From a virus (taxonomy: Duplodnaviria; Heunggongvirae; Uroviricota; Caudoviricetes), in IMG/VR virus record IMGVR_UViG_2657245483_000005: 15,604 nt of DNA, one strand, 5' to 3'. This document shows, piece after piece, positions 2,404 to 15,026 of the stretch. The stretch's first letter is position 1. Every line of letters begins with the position of its first letter. The notes beneath the pieces were generated by a model. The model searched no databases, was not told the DNA's origin, and saw only the letters and a list, made by a program, of their open reading frames with translations. The position numbers and the translations under genes are program-made.

Positions 2404-3894
2404 ATGCCTAACGGCTTATCTGTATCACGCGTCGTTCGCGTGCAGGTCGCGCTCGCCGTTCGCGCGGCGGCCGGGCGTAACTTCGGCGCGCTGCTGGTTC
2501 TCGGCACCGCCGACGTAATCACTGCCCCGGAAGTGATGCGCCTTTACCAGGATATCGAAAGTGTCGCCACCGACTTTGGCACTACCGCTGAAGAGTACAA
2601 GGCGGCAAACCTTTACTTCCAGCAGTCGCCGCAGCCCCGCGATCTTTATATCGGAAAACTGGAACGCGCCTCCAGCCCGGCAACGGCCGGCAAGCTCACT
2701 GGTGCTGTACTGACCTCTGCAGAGCAGGCAATCGCAAACTTCACCGCGGTTGACGATGGCGCGATTAAGATCTCGGTGGACGGCACTGTTAAAACCGTAA
2801 CGGGTATCGACCTGTCAGCGGTGACCGATCTGGCCGGAGTAGCGACGGCCATCACTGCGAAACTTACCGGCACCGCCGTTTCCTACGTGGCCGGCTCGAA
2901 TCAGTTTGTGGTGACGTCTTCCACTACCGGGGCCACCTCAGCAATTGGTATTCCTGTTGCTGCCGGCACTGGCACTGACCTGGCGCCGCTGCTGGGCATT
3001 GACTCAGCGCATAACCCAACCGTGTCAAACGGCCAGGATGCTTCATCTTCAGTGCTGCCGTCGGTGAACACAGCGCTGAACTACTCAGCCGACTGGTACG
3101 GCCTGGTTATCGCCGATACTGCAATGACGGACCAGGACCATATCGATGTTTCTGCCCTGATCGGCTCTGCGAGCGATTCCCGGGTGTACGGTGTGACGAC
3201 TGCGGCGGCCGAGGTCCTGGACTCAACCAGCACCACGGATATTGCCTACAGGCTGAAAGCCGCCGGTTATGGCCGCACGTTCTGCCAGTACAGCCAGGTG
3301 CCTTATGCCGCAGCCTCTGCCTTTGGTCGCGCGTTCACAGTAAATTTCCTGGGTAACAACACCACCATTACCCTGAAATTCAAGCAGGAACCGGGCATTA
3401 CTGCCGAGACGATCACCGCGCAGCAGGCCGATACGCTCAAGGCAAAAAACTGCAACGTATTTGTGCGCTACGCCAACGATACCGCCATCATCCAGGAAGG
3501 CGTGATGTCCAACGGCGATTTCTTCGACGAGCGCCACGGCCTCGACTGGCTGCAGAATTACGTCCAGAACAACCTCTGGAACCTGCTTTACACCTCAACC
3601 ACCAAAATCCCGCAGACCGAAGCGGGCGTGACGCGCCTGGTGACCAATGTCGAACAGTCGATGGACCAGTCTGTAAACAACGGTCTGGTGGCACCGGGAA
3701 TCTGGAACGGCGGTGACGTCGGACAGCTGACATCAGGCGATATGCTGACCAAAGGCTATTACGTTTACGCGAACCCGCTCAACGCCCAGGCGCAGGCAGA
3801 TCGTGAAGCGCGTAAGGCGCCGGTGATTCAGGTAGCAACCAAACTGGCGGGGGCTATCCACTTCGCTGATGTATTAATCGACGTGGTGCGCTAA
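2404..3894 (+). CDS. Tail sheath protein (DUF3383-like)
   Basis: 496-aa ORF directly upstream of the tube, frameshifted chaperone and tape measure; size and position are typical of a myovirus sheath. GGAG precedes the ATG. Confidence 0.8.
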
Positions 3895-3905
3895 GGGGGC
3901 ACTGA

Positions 3906-4346
3906 ATGAGCACTTATTCTTTTCTGGATATCACGGGGTCAATGACTGGCCCCACCGGGGTGATTGACCTCGGCGCCGGTTCTGCCAACTCCGAAGAGGG
4001 CATTACCATCGCCATGGTCGAAAACAAAAACACCATGACGATCGGCGCTGACGGCGAGGGCATGCACTCCCTGCACGCCGGCAAGGCTGGAACGGTAACC
4101 GTTAACCTTCTGAAAACCTCGCCGGTGAACAAAAAGCTGTCTCTGGCCTACAACGCGCAAAGCCAGTCCTCAGCGCTGTGGGGTAATAACGTCTTTGTGT
4201 TCCGCAACACTGCATCTGGCGACATCATGACCGCGCGCGGCGGCGCCTTCCAGAAGCACCCCGACTGGCAGAACGCCAAAGAGGGCGGGACGGTGGCCTG
4301 GGTGTTCGACTGCATCAAAATTGACCCGTTCCTGGGGGAGTATTAA
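3906..4346 (+). CDS. Tail tube protein (DUF3277-like)
   Basis: 146-aa ORF between the sheath and the tail assembly chaperone; AAGGGGG RBS upstream. Confidence 0.75.
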   Translation: MSTYSFLDITGSMTGPTGVIDLGAGSANSEEGITIAMVENKNTMTIGADGEGMHSLHAGKAGTVTVNLLKTSPVNKKLSLAYNAQSQSSALWGNNVFVFRNTASGDIMTARGGAFQKHPDWQNAKEGGTVAWVFDCIKIDPFLGEY

Positions 4347-4349
4347 TTC

Positions 4350-4775
4350 ATGGAAATTACTATCAAGTATCAGCAGTACCGTATCGCTAAGTTAAGCGTT
4401 TTCGAACAGCTGAAGGTATCCCGCAAGCTGCTGCCGGTTCTGGCGGGTCTGGTTTCTGACTTCCGTAACATCCAGACGAAGCTGAATGCCAAAGACACCG
4501 AAGGCGCGATGGAAAGTATTCTTCCGAAGATCGCTGGCGCCGTTTCCGGCCTCAGTGATGATGATGTGAATGCGATCCTTTTTCCCTGCCTGCAGGTGGT
4601 GGCGCGCAAACACTTGAGCGCCTGGGTGCCGGTGTGCCAGCAGGGCACCATGGCCTTTGACGATATCGACCTGTTCGTGATGCTGCAGCTTGTGGCGCGG
4701 GTGGTCGCCGATTCGCTGGGAAATTTTTTGCAAGGACTTCCTACCAGCGAGACGAACACCCAGCCTGCGGAATAA
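4350..4775 (+). CDS. Tail assembly chaperone, short product (lambda G / P2 E analogue)
   Basis: 141-aa ORF immediately upstream of the tape measure; it contains a slippery heptamer near its 3' end and a -1 frame that is open to the tape measure start. Confidence 0.75.
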   Translation: MEITIKYQQYRIAKLSVFEQLKVSRKLLPVLAGLVSDFRNIQTKLNAKDTEGAMESILPKIAGAVSGLSDDDVNAILFPCLQVVARKHLSAWVPVCQQGTMAFDDIDLFVMLQLVARVVADSLGNFLQGLPTSETNTQPAE

Positions 4776-4963
4776 CCTTTAACACCCTGCCGGGCGGTGA
4801 GGATTACATCCTTCGCCCGGCGCTCGCCTTCAACCTCGATCAGAAAGACCTCGACAGCGGTGCAGTGGACCTGTGCCGCATCGCGCTGCTTAACGATTAC
4901 CTCGATATGCGTGACGATAACGACGCGCGCGTAGCCAAATGGAGAGCCCAGAACAATGGCTGA
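4350..4963 (+). CDS. Tail assembly chaperone, -1 frameshift-extended product (GT / E+E' analogue, about 204 aa)
   Basis: The -1 frame entered at A_AAT_TTT (4721-4727) has no stop until TGA 4961-4963; I translated it codon by codon. The extension fills the otherwise ORF-free 180 bp before the tape measure ATG at 4956. Confidence 0.65.
4721..4727 (+). promoter_or_regulatory. Programmed -1 ribosomal frameshift slippery site (A_AAU_UUU)
   Basis: The heptamer fits X_XXY_YYZ in the zero frame (gga AAT TTT ttg). It is followed by more Ts and sits 16 codons before the zero-frame stop. Confidence 0.6.
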
Positions 4964-6935
4964 TACTATCCGTGATTACCTGGTCTCTCTGGGGTTCGAT
5001 ATCGACGGCGCGGGCCAGGCGAAGTTTGAAGCCACGCTCAAAGGTGTGGCCGCGAACGTCGTAAAACTGGGGGCCATAGTTGAGTCGACGGGGCTGGCCA
5101 TTGTGGGCTTCACCGCCTCGATCGCCAGCGGCCTTGATAAACTCTACTGGGCCGCGGAACGCACCGGGGCATCGGTCAACGGCATCAAGGCGCTTGGCTA
5201 TGCTGCCTCACAAACCGGCTCCAGCGCCGAGGCTGCCCAGAACTCACTGGAGAGCCTGGCGCGCTTCATGCGCAGCAATCCCGGCGCCGAAGGCTTCCTG
5301 AACCGCCTGGGGGTGCAGACCCGGGACGCTTCCGGACAGATGCGCGACATGTCGGCTATCTTCACCGGCGTCGGCCAGCGCCTCAGCAGCATGCCCTATT
5401 ATCGAGCCAATCAGTTCGCGCAGATGCTGGGCATTGACGAAAACACGCTGATGGCAATGCGGCGAGGAATGTCCGGCTTCACGGCTGAATACCAGTCGAT
5501 GATGCAGAAGACAGGCTTCGATGCTGACAGGGCCGCGCAGCAGTCCAACAAGTTCATGACCTCAATGCGCAACTTCGTTTCGCTACTGGGGATCTTGCGC
5601 GATAAGGTTGGCTCGAATCTGGCCGGCGGCCTGAGCGGCACGCTGAACAATCTCAGCAAGCAGATGCTGGAGAACTGGCCGAAGATAGAGGGCGTGGTCA
5701 CGAAGATAGTGAAGGGGGTGCTCTTTGCTGCTGATGTCATTACCCAGATGGCGTGGCGCGTCTCGCAGGCGGTAGGCGGCCTGATTGAGTGGTTTAAAAA
5801 GCTGCCGCCGGATATACAGCAGCTAATCATGCTGGTGTCCGGGCTGGTTTCGGCGTGGCAGCTGCTTAACGCTGAGTTCCTCAAATCGCCGATAGGTATC
5901 GTAATCGCGCTAGGCTCGGCGCTGTTCGCGCTTTACGACGACTACAAAACCTGGAAAGAAGGCGGTCAAAGCCTGCTGCCCTGGGATAAATGGGAGCCAG
6001 AAATAGAGGCTGCCCTGAAATCGCTTGGCGAGCTGCGGGATTCTGTGAAGGCGATAGGGGTTGAAATCGCAAAGCTGCTCAATATCAACCTCAAAAACTG
6101 GACCCTTAAAGGCGACATCGACAACCTCACTAAGCAGTTCGGTGAGTTTGGCAAGATGATTAAGATGATTGGCGACCTGATAAACGCCATCAACGAGGGG
6201 CGTTGGAAAGATGCTTATGCGATCGGCAAGAACCTGCTGGCACAAGGGCAAGGCCAGGATGCTCTACCTGCAGTATCTGACAGCGCTAACAATACTGCTG
6301 ACTGGATAGAGGGCAAGACGGGGTTCGACCCGCGAAGCATCGGGAAAACAATAAACGGGTGGATTTTCGGCAAAGAAGAGGGCGGCTCAGACCAGCAGGA
6401 GAGCGGCCCGGGCAAGACGCTGGCCGACCGTAACAACAATCCTGGCAACCTGCGCCCCGTCGGCGGCACCGGTTTTACCTCTCATCAGACGCCGCTTGAT
6501 GGTTGGATGGCAATGGCCAGGCAGATCCGTCTTTATTTCACCGGAAAAAGCGCGGCCGCCGGGTATGAAAAACTCCAGTCAATATGGGACATCATCCACA
6601 AATACGCACCTGCCAGCGACAACAACGACCCCGAGGCCTATTCGAACTTCGTAGCCAATATGATGGGCGTGGGCGCTAAGGACACGCTGAACCTGAGCGA
6701 CCCGCAGCAGTTCAGCAACCTTCTGCAGGCCATGTCCAGGAAGGAAGGTTACGGTCAGTGGAATTCCCCATTGGCCAGCGTTGCCGCTACGCAGGCAGCC
6801 GCGCAGATCAGCCAGGAAACGAACATCAATATTTACGGCGCGAGCGACCCGGCATCCACTGGCCGGGAGGTTGCCGATCGTCAATCCGGCGTTAATTCCC
6901 GTCTTACTCAGCAGCTACAACCGAGGGTCTACTGA
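4956..6935 (+). CDS. Tail tape measure protein
   Basis: 659-aa ORF immediately after the frameshifted chaperone, with a GGAGAG RBS. Ala/Gly/Gln-rich with a helical-looking composition, and the longest gene in the module. Confidence 0.85.
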   Translation: MADTIRDYLVSLGFDIDGAGQAKFEATLKGVAANVVKLGAIVESTGLAIVGFTASIASGLDKLYWAAERTGASVNGIKALGYAASQTGSSAEAAQNSLESLARFMRSNPGAEGFLNRLGVQTRDASGQMRDMSAIFTGVGQRLSSMPYYRANQFAQMLGIDENTLMAMRRGMSGFTAEYQSMMQKTGFDADRAAQQSNKFMTSMRNFVSLLGILRDKVGSNLAGGLSGTLNNLSKQMLENWPKIEGVVTKIVKGVLFAADVITQMAWRVSQAVGGLIEWFKKLPPDIQQLIMLVSGLVSAWQLLNAEFLKSPIGIVIALGSALFALYDDYKTWKEGGQSLLPWDKWEPEIEAALKSLGELRDSVKAIGVEIAKLLNINLKNWTLKGDIDNLTKQFGEFGKMIKMIGDLINAINEGRWKDAYAIGKNLLAQGQGQDALPAVSDSANNTADWIEGKTGFDPRSIGKTINGWIFGKEEGGSDQQESGPGKTLADRNNNPGNLRPVGGTGFTSHQTPLDGWMAMARQIRLYFTGKSAAAGYEKLQSIWDIIHKYAPASDNNDPEAYSNFVANMMGVGAKDTLNLSDPQQFSNLLQAMSRKEGYGQWNSPLASVAATQAAAQISQETNINIYGASDPASTGREVADRQSGVNSRLTQQLQPRVY

Positions 6936-7818: not shown

Positions 7819-8889
7819 ATGACTATTAACTGGAATCGCCATTTTGAACTGCGGCTTCTGAACGACAAGGGGAATGGCATATCCCTGTCGGACTTTAAAG
7901 TTACCTTCGCAATCGACTGGTTTAACTCGATGTGGCCACGTGTGGCGACGCTTAAAATTTACAACCTCAAGCGTGACACAATCACCCGGATTACGGGGGA
8001 TGAGTTTTCTCGCATTACCATCATAGCCGGTTATAACGGCCTGGCGCCGACGGTTACTGAAAGCGAGGTTGGGCAGGTTACCGAGATTTCATCTGAGCAA
8101 ACCGGCCAGACGCGCGGGCAAAATTACGGAGTCATTTTTGATGGGGAGATTCGTTTTACGATAACCGGGCGCGATAATCCTACCGATATTTTTACGCTAA
8201 TTCAGTCGGTAGATGGTCATAAGGCGTTCAACGAAGCCGTATCGTCCGGCAGCCTGGCGGCAGGATATAAGCTTGCCGACGTGCATACACTTCTGATGAA
8301 GGACTTTTCGCCTTACGGCATCACCCAGGGCATCACCGGGCAGTTCCCTGACAGGGTGATGCCACGCGGTCGCGTCTTCTTCGGCGCAACGCGCGACTAC
8401 ATGAGCAACCTAGCGGCGCAGTGCGAGGCTAACTGGCAATTTGTCGACGGCCAGCTGCAAATGGTGCCTGAGAATAAATATCTCCATGAAGCGATCGTGC
8501 TTAACACCAAAACTGGCCTGGTCGGTATGCCTCAGCAAACCATGGGGGCAGGCGTTAATGTGCGCTGTCTCATTAATCCAAACATTCGGGTTAACGGGCT
8601 TATTCAGTTGAACCAGGACTCGGTGTATCGCTCGCAATTACCGAACGATGAGATCCAAAGATCACAGGCAAGGATTACTGAGGCAAATGATAATGGTAAT
8701 CTTAGTACAGGCAGCGCGACGCTTGCGCAGCCCGCCAGTGTGGCAACTGATGGCGTTTACATAGTTCAGTCAATCAGCTACACCGGCGATACGAGAGGGA
8801 ATCCGTGGTATATGGATCTCATGTGTATGGCCAGAGGGGCGCGTGATTTACAATCGAATACGGCCCTACAGCGAACGGCTCCACAATGA
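7819..8889 (+). CDS. Baseplate hub protein (Mu gp44 / P2 gpD-like, tentative)
   Basis: 356-aa ORF located where the hub sits in Mu/P2-like baseplate modules, upstream of the spike, gpW-like, gpJ-like and gpI-like genes. Confidence 0.5.
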   Translation: MTINWNRHFELRLLNDKGNGISLSDFKVTFAIDWFNSMWPRVATLKIYNLKRDTITRITGDEFSRITIIAGYNGLAPTVTESEVGQVTEISSEQTGQTRGQNYGVIFDGEIRFTITGRDNPTDIFTLIQSVDGHKAFNEAVSSGSLAAGYKLADVHTLLMKDFSPYGITQGITGQFPDRVMPRGRVFFGATRDYMSNLAAQCEANWQFVDGQLQMVPENKYLHEAIVLNTKTGLVGMPQQTMGAGVNVRCLINPNIRVNGLIQLNQDSVYRSQLPNDEIQRSQARITEANDNGNLSTGSATLAQPASVATDGVYIVQSISYTGDTRGNPWYMDLMCMARGARDLQSNTALQRTAPQ

Positions 8890-9242
8890 AAAAAATACTT
8901 TTTTTGGTTTCTTTAGCATTCGTCAGTTTTTCTTCTACAGCGGCAAACACCGCTTATATGAAGTGTGGTCCCTTTACTTTCTCAACCTCATCAAGCAACG
9001 ACGGATATCCGAGGATAAACGGAGCAAAGCCTGATAGTCAGAAGGTGACATTCCTCAAAAAAGAGGGAGATTATGACAATATTAAAATGCAATGGATTGT
9101 CATGAATGAGAATTCTGGGCAGCGCTATGGTCTTGATTATATAAAACGCAATGGGAGAGGGATACTCAATGCCGAGGCCATCAGAATGAACATGAATGAA
9201 CCTCGAGTGTTTGGAACTTACGACTGCGTGAAGGCTAAGTAA
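8886..9242 (+). CDS. Small secreted protein of unknown function, cargo gene, AT-rich
   Basis: N-terminal signal peptide MKKILFLVSLAFVSFSSTAA with no lipobox, two Cys in the mature part, and composition sharply AT-richer than the flanking genes. The start overlaps the hub stop (ATGA at 8886-8889). Confidence 0.7.
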   Translation: MKKILFLVSLAFVSFSSTAANTAYMKCGPFTFSTSSSNDGYPRINGAKPDSQKVTFLKKEGDYDNIKMQWIVMNENSGQRYGLDYIKRNGRGILNAEAIRMNMNEPRVFGTYDCVKAK

Positions 9243-9251
9243 TTTAATAAA

Positions 9252-9272
9252 GGCGCCGGAACTACCGGCGCT
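9252..9272. terminator. GC-rich hairpin between convergent genes (candidate bidirectional terminator, better for the minus-strand gene)
   Basis: ggcgccgg / aacta / ccggcgct forms a 7-bp GC stem plus one G-U pair. On the minus strand it is followed by the U/A-rich tract ttattaaatt; on the plus strand the T-run is interrupted. Confidence 0.5.
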
Positions 9273-9275
9273 CAG

Positions 9276-9626
9276 TTACTCGTCTTTAAAACTTATAATT
9301 TTGTACTGCTCCAGTACTTCTGAAAGCTCCTTTGATGTCAGATTTTGTATTTCGATCGTACCTTTTTCAGTGGTTACCGTTATTTTTTTTGATGATCTGG
9401 TCTGTAACCATTTTCTCGCTATCGATGCAATGGCGATACAAGCTGGTGATGATGTGATAACGGTAATAGATATTTCGAGAATTGTGCCAATAGCGCCAGG
9501 AGAATCACCCGTTCTGACTCTTTTACTTACTACATAGTCATTAGCGGGTATGTTATCCTGGATTACAGGAAGTAACTCTTTCCAAATAGCTGGAGTAAAT
9601 TTTATGGTTGTTTCTGATTTTGGCAT
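9276..9626 (-). CDS. Hypothetical cytoplasmic protein, cargo gene, AT-rich
   Basis: 116-aa minus-strand ORF inside the AT-rich insertion, hydrophilic and balanced in composition. The plus-strand ORFs over the same DNA look like antisense junk. No strong RBS was seen, so the exact start is uncertain. Confidence 0.55.
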   Translation of the reverse strand: MPKSETTIKFTPAIWKELLPVIQDNIPANDYVVSKRVRTGDSPGAIGTILEISITVITSSPACIAIASIARKWLQTRSSKKITVTTEKGTIEIQNLTSKELSEVLEQYKIISFKDE

Positions 9627-9805
9627 AAAGGTTTCAGGCCCCTATCGAGAGAAGCTAAAAATTGCCTACCGGCTTTTCCTTAGCAGCCTGTATCTTGCTA
9701 CAAATCACGACGTTACCGTGGTTCTAAGCAAAACCTATATTAAGAGCTGCAATGAAGATAAATAGCACGCATTAACTCACCCTCAAATCCTGACATTTGA
9801 TCAGT

Positions 9806-9827
9806 AACCCGCCTCGGCGGGTTTTTT
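9806..9827 (+). terminator. Rho-independent terminator (plus strand)
   Basis: aacccgcc / tcg / ggcgggtt is a perfect 8-bp stem with a 3-nt loop, followed by tttttt; it ends 18 bp before the spike gene ATG. Confidence 0.75.
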
Positions 9828-9844
9828 ATTACCTGGAGAAAGCT

Positions 9845-10498
9845 ATGCCAGTATCAGCCCGCGCGCAGGACGGCAACGAATCGCAGACTCTTGAGGCGCA
9901 CCGCCACGCCATTTTCGGCAGCCTGCGCGTGGCTTTGCCGGGGATCATCCAGTCCTTTGACCCTGAAACAGTGACATGCACCGTGCAGCCAGCCATCTAC
10001 GGTCAGCGGCTCAGCGACGATGGCGCTCTGGTTTCTGAGGAGATACCGATTTTGCCAGACGTTCCAGTGGTGTTCCCCCGCGGCGGTGGCTGCACGTTAA
10101 CCTTCCCGGTAAAGGCCGGTGACGAGTGCCTCCTGGTCTTCTCCGATCGCTGCATCGACTTCTGGTGGCAGAGCGGCGGGGTGCAGGAACCGGTTGACCC
10201 GCGCCAGCATGACCTGAGTGATGCGTTTGCCATTGTGGGTCCGCAGTCGCAGGCGCAGAAAATCAGCAGCATCAGTACCAGTGCGGTTGAACTGCGCAGT
10301 GACGACGGTGGAACAAAACTGAGCCTTAACCCTTCATCCGGAGCGATAACGGGAACCGCGCCGGGAGGCTTCAACCTTAACGGTCTGAAAATTCTGCCTG
10401 ACGGCCGCCTGCAGCTGGTGGATGGCTCCATGGTTGATAAGCATACGCATGGCGGCGTGGAAGTCGGCGGCAGCAATACGAAACCACTGGGAGGGTAA
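9845..10498 (+). CDS. Baseplate central spike protein (gpV / Mu gp45-like)
   Basis: ATG at 9845 with GGAGA 7 nt upstream; the track's ATG at 9797 lies within the terminator. 217 aa, positioned after the hub, with an HxH motif (HTH, 10442-10450) near the C-terminus as in iron-binding spike apices. Confidence 0.55.
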   Translation: MPVSARAQDGNESQTLEAHRHAIFGSLRVALPGIIQSFDPETVTCTVQPAIYGQRLSDDGALVSEEIPILPDVPVVFPRGGGCTLTFPVKAGDECLLVFSDRCIDFWWQSGGVQEPVDPRQHDLSDAFAIVGPQSQAQKISSISTSAVELRSDDGGTKLSLNPSSGAITGTAPGGFNLNGLKILPDGRLQLVDGSMVDKHTHGGVEVGGSNTKPLGG

Positions 10499-12731: not shown

Positions 12732-13510
12732 TGGCTGGAACTAATGATTTTAAAGCGTTTGCGACAGATGCTAATGCAAATGTTACCTCGCAGGAGGAAT
12801 GGGAGACGCTAACCGCACTGAAGAAAGGATTCTCCTCGGGTAAAGCATCCAGCGCACAGGTCAGTAAAGCGCTGCGCCAACCGTCGACGATGGCGGCTGT
12901 ACTGGGGCAGTTTATCGCGAACGCCGAACTGGACGCGCTCGATGATGGTGACGTTGATGGACTGGTGGCAAAGCTGGCGACAGCGATTACCACAAACCTT
13001 GGTTTGGGAGAAGGCTCAGCATTACCCGTTGGCGTACCTGTTCCGTGGCCTTCAGCCACACCGCCGACAGGCTGGCTGAAATGCAACGGTGCCGCTTTTT
13101 CTGCTGAAGAATACCCGGAACTGGCAAAGGCTTACCCGACAAATAAATTGCCTGATTTACGTGGTGAGTTTATTCGTGGCTGGGATGACGGGCGTGGAGT
13201 GGATAGCGGTCGTACTTTATTAACGAATCAAGAGCATGCAGTAATTTCTCATAATCATGGAATACCTACAAAAGTGGGGTCAGTTACTAATATCCCGTAT
13301 GGAATAGAACAGGTTATATCTGATGAAACCATTTTTTCATCAGCAAAAACAGTTGGTGTGGATTACTGGTCTAACAGTGAAAGAGTTTTTACTTATACCT
13401 CTGGTGGAAGAAATGGTGCTGAATCAGTGAGTTCACCTGATGCCTCCTCTTTAATTAAAGAAACCAGACCACGGAACCTAGCATTTGCGTATATCGTGAG
13501 GGCTGCATAA
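12731..13510 (+). CDS. Tail fibre protein: constant N-terminal part (codons 1-90) plus currently joined variable C-terminal part
   Basis: TAATG overlap start at 12731 (an alternative in-frame ATG lies at 12713). The C-terminal part contains LPDLRGEFIRGWDDGRGVDSGRTL, a collar-type motif I recall from tail fibre proteins. A crossover site sits at codons 86-94. Confidence 0.8.
   Translation: MAGTNDFKAFATDANANVTSQEEWETLTALKKGFSSGKASSAQVSKALRQPSTMAAVLGQFIANAELDALDDGDVDGLVAKLATAITTNLGLGEGSALPVGVPVPWPSATPPTGWLKCNGAAFSAEEYPELAKAYPTNKLPDLRGEFIRGWDDGRGVDSGRTLLTNQEHAVISHNHGIPTKVGSVTNIPYGIEQVISDETIFSSAKTVGVDYWSNSERVFTYTSGGRNGAESVSSPDASSLIKETRPRNLAFAYIVRAA
12987..13012. repeat. Left crossover site of the invertible segment (hix/gix-like 26-bp imperfect palindrome)
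   Basis: ttaccacaaaccttggtttgggagaa, central dinucleotide TT at 12999-13000. It is 21/26 identical to the reverse complement of the site at 14971-14996. Confidence 0.7.
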
Positions 13511-14112
13511 TGGTGAAAGCAAAATTAAACAGTGCGTTTATTGCCACCGTGGCAGGTGAAATCACTGTGTACAACTACCGGGGCGACACCCGCGAATACA
13601 TATCCTCATCGGTTGAGTATCTGCCTGTGGGGGTGGGTATTCCTGCCAATTCCTGTACCGATGCGCCCGGCACACATAAAGCTGGTTATGCAATCTGCCG
13701 TTCTGCAGATTTTAACTCATGGGAATATGTGCCAGACCATCGCGGTGAAACGGTATATAGCACTGAAACAGGAGAATCAAAAGAAATCACAGCTCCGGGT
13801 GATTACTCTGAAAATACAACTACTATCGCCCCGTTAACGCCATTCGATAAATGGGATGGTGAGAAATGGGTGACCGATACTGAGGCACAGCATAGCGCCG
13901 CAGTAGACGTGGCAGAAGCACAGCGCCAGTCGCTGATTGATGCTGCTATGGCTTCCATCAGTCTGATTCAGCTGAAATTGCAGGCCGGGCGGCAACTGAC
14001 GCAAGCAGAAATCACTCGCCTTAACGCTGTGCTGGATTACATTGACACGGTGACGGCAACAGATACCAGCACCGCGCCGGATGTCATCTGGCCTGAACTG
14101 CCGGAGGCGTAG
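13510..14112 (+). CDS. Tail fibre assembly protein (Mu U / lambda Tfa-like), currently expressed orientation
   Basis: TAATG overlap with the fibre stop; 200 aa; C-terminal LDYIDTV..DTSTAPDVIWPELP matches the conserved Tfa C-terminal pattern. Confidence 0.75.
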   Translation: MVKAKLNSAFIATVAGEITVYNYRGDTREYISSSVEYLPVGVGIPANSCTDAPGTHKAGYAICRSADFNSWEYVPDHRGETVYSTETGESKEITAPGDYSENTTTIAPLTPFDKWDGEKWVTDTEAQHSAAVDVAEAQRQSLIDAAMASISLIQLKLQAGRQLTQAEITRLNAVLDYIDTVTATDTSTAPDVIWPELPEA

Positions 14113-14527
14113 GCCATTCAATATCTGGAGCACTGGAGGTATCAACCAGTTCCAGTGCGTCCAGATAATCCAGCCACAAATTATATTGCGCCAGTTCCTC
14201 ACTTTTCAGACGACCAATCGCCGCTTTGCCAGGCCACTGATGAGTATTGATGTAGGTATTGACTTCAGAAACCAAAGATATTTTTTTCATTTCAGCCGTC
14301 AACACCTCATCCTCTTTTGAAGGGGGTGGGGAATTAATCCATACTGGCCGTCCTGAACTGTCAGCGCCAATTTCTTTCCCTTCTGGATGCAGCCCAAGAA
14401 ATTGCTCATATGTTTCTCTGGTAATTTCAATAACATCATCAGGAAGCGTTCCCGCATCCTCATATTCTGGAAACAATTCTTGCAGATAAAAACTTTTACT
14501 TCCGGGTGAAAAGAATACTGAGTTCAT
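14084..14527 (-). CDS. Alternative tail fibre assembly protein (U'-like)
   Basis: Minus-strand 147-aa ORF with C-terminal LDYLDALELVDTSSAPDIEWPTPP, matching the Tfa pattern; located directly downstream of the minus-strand fibre tip. Confidence 0.7.
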   Translation of the reverse strand: MNSVFFSPGSKSFYLQELFPEYEDAGTLPDDVIEITRETYEQFLGLHPEGKEIGADSSGRPVWINSPPPSKEDEVLTAEMKKISLVSEVNTYINTHQWPGKAAIGRLKSEELAQYNLWLDYLDALELVDTSSAPDIEWPTPPAVQAR

Positions 14528-14529
14528 TC

Positions 14530-14982
14530 TTACCGTCCAATGATTAATGCTGAGACGCTGGTATCTGAAGGAAAGGCTGCATTCAGTGGTTTGTCGACTT
14601 TGAACACAATCGTATTATTCCCCCTGACAGCGGCAAAAGAACAAACCGCAGTCGCGTATGAACCTGTAATATTACTGGATACACCACCATAAGCTGTTGT
14701 TGATACCAGAGGGATAACGCCCAGCACCTTATTAGGAAATACAAAGGGCAATGTGGCTGTGGCAATATAAGACTTATTAGAACCTGTAATGGCATAAGCA
14801 TTATCAGTCATTCCATTCATCGCCACCGGGCCGCTTATACTTACAGTAACCATCTGAATGATTAGCCCGTCAGGTTGACGAATCACAAAATTTCCATTGC
14901 CACCAGTAACCGTCCAGAAAGACATATCAGGGATTTGGTTTTCCCCGTTGCCCACATTCCGTTTTGCCGCTTCTCCCAAACC
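14530..14982 (-). CDS. Alternative tail fibre C-terminal cassette (Sv'-like), startless, fused to the fibre gene only after inversion
   Basis: Minus-strand frame open from the right crossover site to the stop at 14530. The sequence after the core encodes GLGE, the same residues that follow the core in the plus-strand fibre, and the frame matches. Confidence 0.7.
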   Translation of the reverse strand, partial: GLGEAAKRNVGNGENQIPDMSFWTVTGGNGNFVIRQPDGLIIQMVTVSISGPVAMNGMTDNAYAITGSNKSYIATATLPFVFPNKVLGVIPLVSTTAYGGVSSNITGSYATAVCSFAAVRGNNTIVFKVDKPLNAAFPSDTSVSALIIGR

Positions 14983-14996
14983 AACCTTTTTTATAA
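14971..14996. repeat. Right crossover site of the invertible segment (hix/gix-like)
   Basis: ttctcccaaaccaaccttttttataa, central AA at 14983-14984; the inner 14 bp are identical to the inner half of the left site in inverted orientation. It lies 60 bp upstream of the invertase ATG. Confidence 0.7.
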
Positions 14997-15026
14997 CCAT
15001 CAAAAATCTGGTGATGCTTCGCCGTT

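Follow-up and report, generated by a model that had tools for sequence, protein, structure and literature searches.

What occupies the AT-rich stretch between the baseplate hub gene and the central spike gene of a contractile-tail prophage of Escherichia coli, and do the genes in it belong together? The stretch lies at positions 8886-9830 of IMG/VR virus record IMGVR_UViG_2657245483_000005 (Caudoviricetes); the term window denotes the whole piece of DNA that was analyzed, 15,604 nucleotides (nt) in length, which forms part of a ~42-kb E. coli prophage adjoining yciI/tonB. A first-pass annotation, made from the sequence without database searches, had described an insertion of two convergent small genes and considered it the best candidate in the window for an undescribed accessory system. 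Both open reading frames (ORFs) are indeed found where they had been placed, and the product of the plus-strand gene carries the signal peptide that had been ascribed to it. The AT-rich block is nevertheless a composite: a resident gene, here called A, stands next to a swappable cassette, which consists of gene B and a small gene C that had been overlooked. Gene B encodes a protein of the EACC1 domain family. Of this anatomy and family assignment we are highly confident. The three genes are the following:

8886-9242, plus strand: gene A, encoding a secreted protein of 118 amino acids (aa), with a signal peptide at about residues 1-19 and invariant Cys27 and Cys114.
9276-9626, minus strand: gene B, encoding a 116-aa EACC1-family protein (Pfam: PF19953), antisense to the late operon.
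9604-9765, plus strand: gene C, encoding a small soluble protein of 53 aa, overlapping the start of gene B head-to-head.

Compared with the Pfam profile PF19953 (EACC1), gene B reaches 29.1 bits (gathering score 23.6; E = 1.1e-6); the match extends over residues 37-106 of B and over profile positions 26-104 out of 107. The Prokaryotic Genome Annotation Pipeline (PGAP) names the protein EACC1 as well; within the extended B family, PF19953 is matched by 16 of 24 members. The statement that neither protein is recognizable can thus not be upheld for B. The EACC1 domain has been described as a single hydrophobic helix that is strongly conserved, carries a patch of small residues, and is flanked by short alpha+beta extensions (Kaur et al. 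2020, PMC7159879). In the layout of B, an N-terminal domain (residues 1-38, beta-alpha-beta) is followed by a linker with Asp41, a hydrophobic segment of small residues (52-70), and a beta-rich C-terminal part. Residues 52-70 form a 19-residue hydrophobic segment with a mean Kyte-Doolittle value of 1.83, and the small-residue hydrophobic segment TSSPACIAIASI is invariant among close homologs; B had been taken for a plain cytoplasmic protein, a description which this segment contradicts.

The EACC1 protein of Ktedonobacter is an autoinhibited monomer, which the KrAvs12 caspase cuts after Asp49; the C-terminal fragment is toxic and permeabilizes liposomes (Evans et al. 2025, bioRxiv 10.1101/2025.11.14.688446). 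An Asp is found at the position of D41 in 20 out of 20 phage-borne sequences (alignment A4), in a loop which AlphaFold2 (AF2) models with a predicted local distance difference test score (pLDDT) below 50. D41 fits a retained cleavage site. Judged from these features, B is predicted to retain the N-domain that inhibits the protein, the Asp in the linker, and the hydrophobic segment for pore formation.

EACC1 has been described so far as part of a two-gene system: the 5' gene is constantly that of EACC1, and the 3' one codes for a caspase to which variable domains are fused. The system is known mainly from multicellular bacteria (Kaur et al. 2020, PMC7159879). Among 1.84 billion representative proteins, a profile of the B family yields 25 matches at E <= 1e-3, which makes for a very small clade. 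The most distant ones (P0076, P0077 and P0079), which are canonical EACC1 genes, each have a Peptidase_C14 gene directly downstream and serve as an internal control. In contrast, no protease gene is adjacent to B in the window or in loci L002, L006-L010, L027, L030, L039-L041, L045, L047-L066, L067 and L069, and the gene 3' of B in the window is the convergent gene A, not a caspase-superfamily peptidase. Because the sequence matches EACC1 and the 3' protease is absent, we place B in the EACC1 domain family and outside the EACC1-caspase two-gene system. The two have in common the approximate protein size, an alpha+beta domain at the N-terminus, an Asp in the linker immediately ahead of the hydrophobic helix, and C-terminal beta strands. 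They differ in three respects: the phage B loci lack a 3' caspase or other protease, which the distant non-phage relatives possess; the hosts of B are prophages of Enterobacterales instead of multicellular actinobacteria or cyanobacteria; and B has a constant, antisense-overlapping partner of ~50 aa, gene C. No description of such a protease-less, phage-borne and C-paired arrangement was found in the EACC1 papers that were consulted. When B was compared with PDB sequences, only designed proteins were matched, and a BLAST search of 50,697 GenBank phage records returned no match.

Gene C is preceded by a GGAG Shine-Dalgarno sequence 8 nt upstream of its start codon, and over 23 nt its 5' end and that of B overlap on opposite strands. 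Outside this overlap, substitutions are distributed over the three codon positions as 7:5:22 and 7:4:26, i.e. they are mostly synonymous, while the five other reading frames are closed or unbiased. In every intact B locus that was checked, a homologous ORF of ~50 aa overlaps B in the same way, even where B itself is no more than 28-37% identical, and C is present in 20 of 20 IMG/VR loci. The C family comprises 28 clusters, all named hypothetical, and a profile-profile alignment of C with B by hhalign was not significant (probability 16%).

The distribution of the three genes shows which of them form a unit. In lambdoid phages (L045, positions 3856-4941, and L064-L066), a B homolog and C are located between cI and N, directly after cI and in the same direction. 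The B homolog in this context in L045 is 29% identical to B; a neighboring 134-aa gene is not conserved there, whereas C is. Gene A, on the other hand, is unaccompanied by B in about 23 of 26 loci, and behind cI the B-C pair is found in the absence of A. Because B and C travel together without A, and A mostly without B, the mobile unit is B-C, with A excluded; the functional pairing of A with B that the two-gene reading implied is not supported. Counted over 28 loci with an A homolog, with one genome per species, B-C is present in three; it was also found in about 11 of 5426 complete E. coli genomes. Its GC content (GC) is 0.37-0.42 in all relatives. Foreign composition and absence from close relatives, the two marks of a moron, are found for B-C; they are not found for A, which is present in 26 of the 28 loci.

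In two independent cases the 3' two-thirds of B have been lost, while C and the first ~35 codons of B, which correspond to the inhibitory N-domain, have been kept (L004, 5916-6060; L070/L071, L070:3421-3500). In the first of these, from E. coli, a lipoprotein gene displaced A and most of B. The promoter of C may lie in the retained 5' stretch of B, or C may serve some purpose independent of B. These remnants, which resemble orphan antitoxins, bring up the possibility that B-C is a selfish toxin-antitoxin (TA) or addiction cassette without any anti-phage role. B would be a membrane toxin and C its antitoxin, as a protein and/or as an antisense RNA, and the pair would stabilize the module or the prophage. 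The head-to-head overlap, which forces B and C to have mutually antisense transcripts, agrees with this, and so does a Phd/Doc pair that fills the same slot in Yersinia (L037). The two genes are inherited together in every intact B locus, and C also outlasts the loss of the toxic part of B. As in type I TA systems (hok/sok, tisB/istR), an oppositely oriented transcript overlaps the 5' end of a small gene for a membrane-active toxin; unlike in these systems, C encodes a conserved protein, as seen from its third-position bias, and B is far larger and belongs to a protease-activated family. Moreover, EACC1 is a defense effector that requires activation rather than a constitutive toxin (Evans et al. 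2025), the invariant linker Asp argues for a retained regulated cleavage, and both contexts of B-C, the defense hotspot described below and the rexAB position, are typical of defense genes of lysogens. We consider a purely selfish cassette unlikely; TA and abortive-infection roles are, however, not mutually exclusive.

In phage lambda, the genes rexAB sit directly downstream of cI. The B homolog and C of the lambdoid phages stand in this very position and likely follow the same logic, namely abortive infection by a membrane-permeabilizing system expressed in the lysogen. B and C show no sequence relationship to RexA and RexB, though, and the module of the window is located in the tail operon instead of the immunity region. 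In the window B is antisense to the Q-dependent late operon, and elsewhere it is co-directional with cI; its orientation hence suits expression in the lysogen and not late lytic expression. For the same reason we regard it as very unlikely that B-C is a phage accessory of lysis timing, comparable to holin/antiholin pairs or to pinholins. A small membrane pore-former with a small partner would suit such a role, but B lies antisense to the late operon, and the prophage already has an annotated holin, endolysin and Rz1-like spanin component in a separate lysis cassette. The sporadic occurrence of B-C given above and its position in the lysogenic cI operon of other phages are likewise at odds with a function in lysis.

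We propose instead that B-C is an abortive-infection or exclusion module expressed in the lysogen, and for the model as a whole we see an even chance of being correct. The lysogen would make B in a latent, autoinhibited form. An event linked to infection would then remove or displace the N-domain of B, most likely through a trans-acting protease that cuts at D41, and the freed C-terminal fragment would permeabilize the inner membrane by forming pores, by analogy with the Ktedonobacter protein, so that the infection is aborted. C would restrain B as an antitoxin-like protein, by antisense transcription across the 5' end of B, or by both. Where the module sits in the tail slot, B would moreover be silenced by late read-through while the prophage itself is in lytic growth. 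The timing of expression, the trigger, pore formation by B, and the roles of C and A are what we infer in this model. A latent pore-former that is freed by cleavage of an inhibitory segment is also known from the bacterial gasdermins and other protease-licensed pore-formers; B differs from them in fold and family, in the N-terminal location of the inhibitory part, and in that no partner protease is encoded nearby. It is possible, if rather doubtful, that B-C represents an undescribed class of prophage defense: a caspase-free EACC1 'bait', licensed at D41 by an Asp-specific protease in trans, which would be, for example, one brought or induced by the invading phage or element, and gated by C. 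Separately, and with the same reservation, A may stand for a periplasmic exclusion or immunity protein found throughout the family, which diversifies rapidly and of which prophages stack several copies in arrays. What had been called an undescribed accessory system is narrowed down accordingly: the description suits the protease-less B-C configuration and nothing else in the block. The assumption of a defense-type cargo has gained in so far as one gene belongs to a family of defense effectors and the slot carries PD-lambda-1/SNIPE, PDC-S42 and Phd/Doc in relatives.

A number of results weigh against the proposed model. The AF2 model of B (topology b-a-b, loop, b-a-b-b-a-b) is of low confidence, with a pLDDT of 62, and neither PADLOC nor NCBIfam gives a match for the protein. 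The spacing of the Shine-Dalgarno sequence of B is long, and no consistent sigma-70 promoter emerged for B from a consensus scan or from a -35/-10 scan of its upstream region in eight loci. No annotated candidate for an activating protease was found in the whole 42-kb prophage. Gene C is not predicted to encode a membrane protein, its hydrophobicity being too low for a membrane helix, and its persistence in L004 and L070, where B is no longer intact, may point to an independent function. For gene A, too, PADLOC and NCBIfam give no match, and neither does Pfam. No promoter-like site of its own was found upstream of A, so that A may be a purely late protein unrelated to defense.

No Pfam domain was found in a 467-aa hypothetical protein, encoded beside the repressor gene of the prophage, that was considered as a candidate protease. 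Its gene, which belongs to the same prophage outside the window (L011:4831-6234), directly follows a gene for a helix-turn-helix repressor-like protein, a typical site for cargo expressed in the lysogen.

Where, then, does the cassette reside? The prophage combines a lambdoid early region (RecET, O/P replication genes, a Q-type antiterminator) with a contractile-tail module, and positions 7819-10498 are 99.9-100% identical in four complete genomes, NCTC11023 (LS483297) among them. The gene order at the locus is tape measure, Dit-like, plug, hub (7819-8889), AT-rich block, spike (9845-10498), sheath initiator and baseplate J. The elements that frame the three genes are:

7819-8889, plus strand: baseplate hub gene (phrog_196 'baseplate hub', 3.8e-83; Pfam: E217_GP41), the left anchor of the exchangeable region.
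9253-9271, terminator-like on both strands: GC-rich hairpin separating A from B where the two genes converge (-15.9 kcal/mol, z = -4.2).
9789-9807, no strand assigned: conserved 19-nt motif CCTGACATTTGATCAGTAA, which holds a GATC site and abuts the terminator.
9806-9831, plus strand: intrinsic-terminator-like hairpin (9806-9823) with T-run, directly 5' of the ribosome-binding site of the spike gene.
9845-10498, plus strand: central spike gene (N-terminal domain PF18352, 1.4e-43; weak Apex motif; PGAP name 'membrane-puncturing spike protein').

The dip in GC that had first drawn attention to the block is real: GC is 0.404 at 8886-9830 as against 0.546 in the remainder of the window, which places the block at z = -3.3 among non-overlapping windows of the same size (945 bp; mean 0.547, standard deviation 0.043). 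The estimates made by eye, under 40% within the block and well over 55% around it, were slightly overstated; the 1-kb flanks have a GC of 0.521 upstream and 0.582 downstream. Tail genes have a third-position GC of 0.58-0.72, as compared with 0.44 for A and 0.31 for B. Further patches of low GC occur at ~13100-13500 and ~14250, in the tail-fibre region. Substitutions relative to diverged homologs fall on codon positions 1:2:3 as 23:10:66 in B and as 38:31:74 in A, a pattern that indicates purifying selection on both genes. We found no direct or inverted repeats flanking the cassette, and an Rfam scan of 8600-10000 gave no match at E <= 1.

Across the prophage family, the slot between the stop codon of A and the spike gene varies in length from 65 bp, where it is empty (L015 and L033), to 1.8 kb, and its GC is 0.35-0.46 in every family locus, compared with 0.49-0.57 in the flanks. 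The contents of the slot are diverse. PD-lambda-1/SNIPE (4.8e-83) is found in the prophages of Erwinia oleae and Pantoea dispersa (L019, L026), and a 148-aa membrane protein of the Mulock type, a PDC-S42 candidate, DUF4282, DUF4236 and several unannotated gene pairs in other relatives. PD-lambda-1, renamed SNIPE, is a membrane-anchored nuclease that cuts DNA during injection (bioRxiv 10.1101/2025.11.03.685801). It occupies the identical slot between A and spike but is an unrelated protein, and is relevant here only as proof that the slot carries defense cargo. Taken together, the comparison of loci identifies the slot as a cargo hotspot of this myovirus-tailed prophage family, of which literature searches turned up no description. 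The interpretation of the block as a cargo insertion between hub and spike therefore applies to B-C, which lies in the hotspot slot, and fails for A, which follows the hub in 26 of the 28 loci.

Some slot contents recur. Gene pairs of ~250-270 plus 130-165 aa occur in L012, L024, L031 and L035, and pairs of ~149 plus 108-156 aa in L013, L020 and L022; in L032 the slot holds two minus-strand genes. No significant match was obtained for these sets in Pfam (L012, L013, L020, L022, L024, L032) or in PADLOC (L012, L013, L032). The smaller partner in L012, L024, L031 and L035 has a motif like 'SRAYYSMFH', which resembles HEPN. The recurrent two-gene sets are candidates for undescribed defense systems. 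In a prophage from a metagenome-assembled genome of Enterobacterales (L013:5223-5780, minus strand), a gene for a ClpP-family protease (PF00574, 6.9e-11) is present in the slot, behind the same 19-nt motif as in the window. It is intriguing to find a protease among the cargo of a slot which at other loci is occupied by an effector activated by proteolysis.

Both hairpins that had been pointed out, the one between the convergent genes and the terminator-like one before the spike gene, are present. They bound the cassette (9253-9271 and 9806-9823), without any convincing sigma-70 promoter for B, and their distribution differs: the first is kept in L002, L006 and L010, and the second is family-wide. 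The terminator-like hairpin and T-run (ACCCGC..GCGGGTTTTTT) were found in all 30 family loci examined, including the empty ones (L015, L033) and phage Mulock; the loci with a terminator at the equivalent position are L002-L005, L012-L039 and L070. Since it is present even at empty slots, the terminator is constant throughout the family and marks the right-hand end of the slot; it is not, as was first assumed, a part of the insertion. An intrinsic terminator in the middle of an operon implies either read-through by antitermination or a setting of the ratio of expression between upstream and downstream tail genes. Furthermore, the terminator may serve as the right-hand homology arm in the exchange of cargo.

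The motif CCTGACATTTGATCAGTAA next to it is less widespread. It occurs in L002, L004, L006, L013, L027, L029, L030, L032 (degenerate), L039-L041 and L070, and is confined to loci whose cargo lies on the minus strand (B, DUF4236, the ClpP-like gene) or that hold remnants of B; it was found in none of the loci with plus-strand cargo only. The motif is probably part of a promoter or leader for the antisense cargo, and may be an operator. The GATC within it is a Dam site, and no convincing sigma-70 consensus is recognizable inside it. A functional hairpin in the region of the motif was considered and rejected, as the stem is not kept in relatives. An extended -10 element, TGcTATTTA, was likewise considered as a promoter of B; it is weak and overlaps the stop codon of gene C.

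The ATG of gene A shares bases with the stop codon of the hub gene (ATGA, 8886-8889). With the start of A overlapping the hub stop, the tight packing of the operon runs on into A and breaks only past the stop codon of A; the break in packing, which had been placed at the edge of the whole block, is thus genuine after A and non-existent before it. An A homolog directly follows the hub gene in 26 of the 28 related loci, whose hosts include Escherichia, Pantoea, Serratia, Erwinia, Rahnella, Kosakonia, Klebsiella and Yersinia. A homolog of A is also gp20 of Klebsiella phage Mulock, and homologs are present in 20 GenBank phage records. In some relatives (L004, L005), a lipoprotein of 230-240 aa replaces A.

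All 46 clusters of A homologs possess a signal peptide, which consists of a variable hydrophobic leader and an AxA motif and is followed by the invariant Cys pair; the mature protein has ~95 residues. The product of gene A is an exported, disulfide-stapled beta-barrel of eight strands. It matches phrog_3443 (3e-43), a family of unknown function. Neither in sequence nor in fold does it match the periplasmic lysozyme inhibitors MliC/PliC, Ivy and PliG, or T4 Sp. T4 Sp is helical, in contrast to the beta-barrel of A.

The fixed position of A within the block of baseplate genes is the one observation in favor of reading the ORFs as ordinary structural baseplate genes, or else as non-functional AT-rich filler, an explanation to which we attach hardly any credence. 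A protein with a signal peptide leaves the cytoplasm, where tails assemble, and is therefore not a baseplate component, and the signal peptide is cleavable in all 46 homolog clusters. B is antisense and contains a membrane-type segment. In all three genes substitutions are biased towards third codon positions, and relatives with an empty slot or with the lipoprotein in place of A retain the full set of baseplate genes. The first-pass annotation had itself named conserved baseplate components in related phages as the observation that would count against a cargo; A, being family-wide, nearly fits this description, but its signal peptide bars a role in the baseplate.

Tandem arrays of divergent A paralogs are seen in two species. 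In Serratia aquatilis (L014:1-4366), at least five intact tandem paralogs are accompanied by one frameshifted copy and an inserted transposase gene. In Pseudescherichia vulneris (L034:629-2849), four copies of A, one of them truncated, alternate with copies of the 3' end of the hub gene. The one hub copy in this array that is readable is almost identical to the 3' end of the resident hub gene, except for the last ~12 residues. The stacking in L034 had suggested a polymorphic toxin-immunity pair, made up of the C-terminus of the hub protein and of A; this was rejected, as the near-identity of the hub copy makes it look like a handle for homologous recombination and not like a variable toxin domain. 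The arrays of A paralogs resemble stacked alleles of immunity or exclusion genes. A is thus a conserved and long-resident accessory protein of these phages, exported and evolving fast, and does not count as variable cargo. From its export, the site of its gene and the paralog arrays, we infer that it is an envelope-acting binder of the exclusion or immunity type.

Exclusion genes within tail operons have precedents in HK97 gp15 and T4 Imm and Sp. The block shares with these morons the AT-rich accessory genes inside a late operon, bounded by a terminator, and A is small, exported and located beside tail-tip genes. No homology to them was found, however, and A is family-wide rather than sporadic and has no detectable promoter of its own. 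One could extend the comparison and regard A, B and C jointly as a non-lethal system of superinfection exclusion at the envelope, in which periplasmic A and inner-membrane B block the tail tip or the entry of DNA of related phages. The export of A next to the hub and spike genes, the tandem arrays of divergent A paralogs, which look like the stacking of immunity or exclusion genes, and the membrane-type segment in B would all be expected of such a system. The separate inheritance of A and B, each being found without the other as counted above, would not; nor would the packing of A into the late operon without a promoter-like site of its own while B runs antisense, or the published activity of EACC1, which is pore formation and cell death. 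We judge this joint function to be quite improbable.

Outside the block, two further features of the window were observed. A 27-nt inverted repeat, TTACCACAAACCTTGGTTTGGGAGAAG, at 12987-13013 and 14970-14996 flanks ~2 kb of DNA with alternative tail-fibre C-termini and assembly genes on opposite strands, and a serine recombinase gene starts near 15005, beside this segment. The segment at 12987-14996 is an invertible host-range segment of the Gin/Cin type, a known kind of feature, and it coincides with the low-GC patches at ~13100-13500 and 14250. The tape-measure protein has a C-terminal SLT lytic-transglycosylase domain in some relatives (L002:3689-5704, L067), and no SLT match in the window (4956-6935).

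What these results mean for the EACC1 family can be seen from its known distribution. Hitherto, EACC1 has been described as one half of an obligate EACC1-caspase pair, mostly from multicellular bacteria. Here, it forms a protease-less clade in enterobacterial prophages, each member with an antisense-overlapping small gene, and this B-C clade stands in two classic positions of lysogen defense genes. The question is raised by what a protease-licensed pore-former without a protease of its own is triggered. Beyond B-C, the hotspot between hub-A and spike is widespread across Enterobacterales, and with one validated defense system (PD-lambda-1/SNIPE) and several unannotated pairs it is a source of candidate systems. 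Gene A stands out as a conserved secreted beta-barrel with array-forming paralogs.

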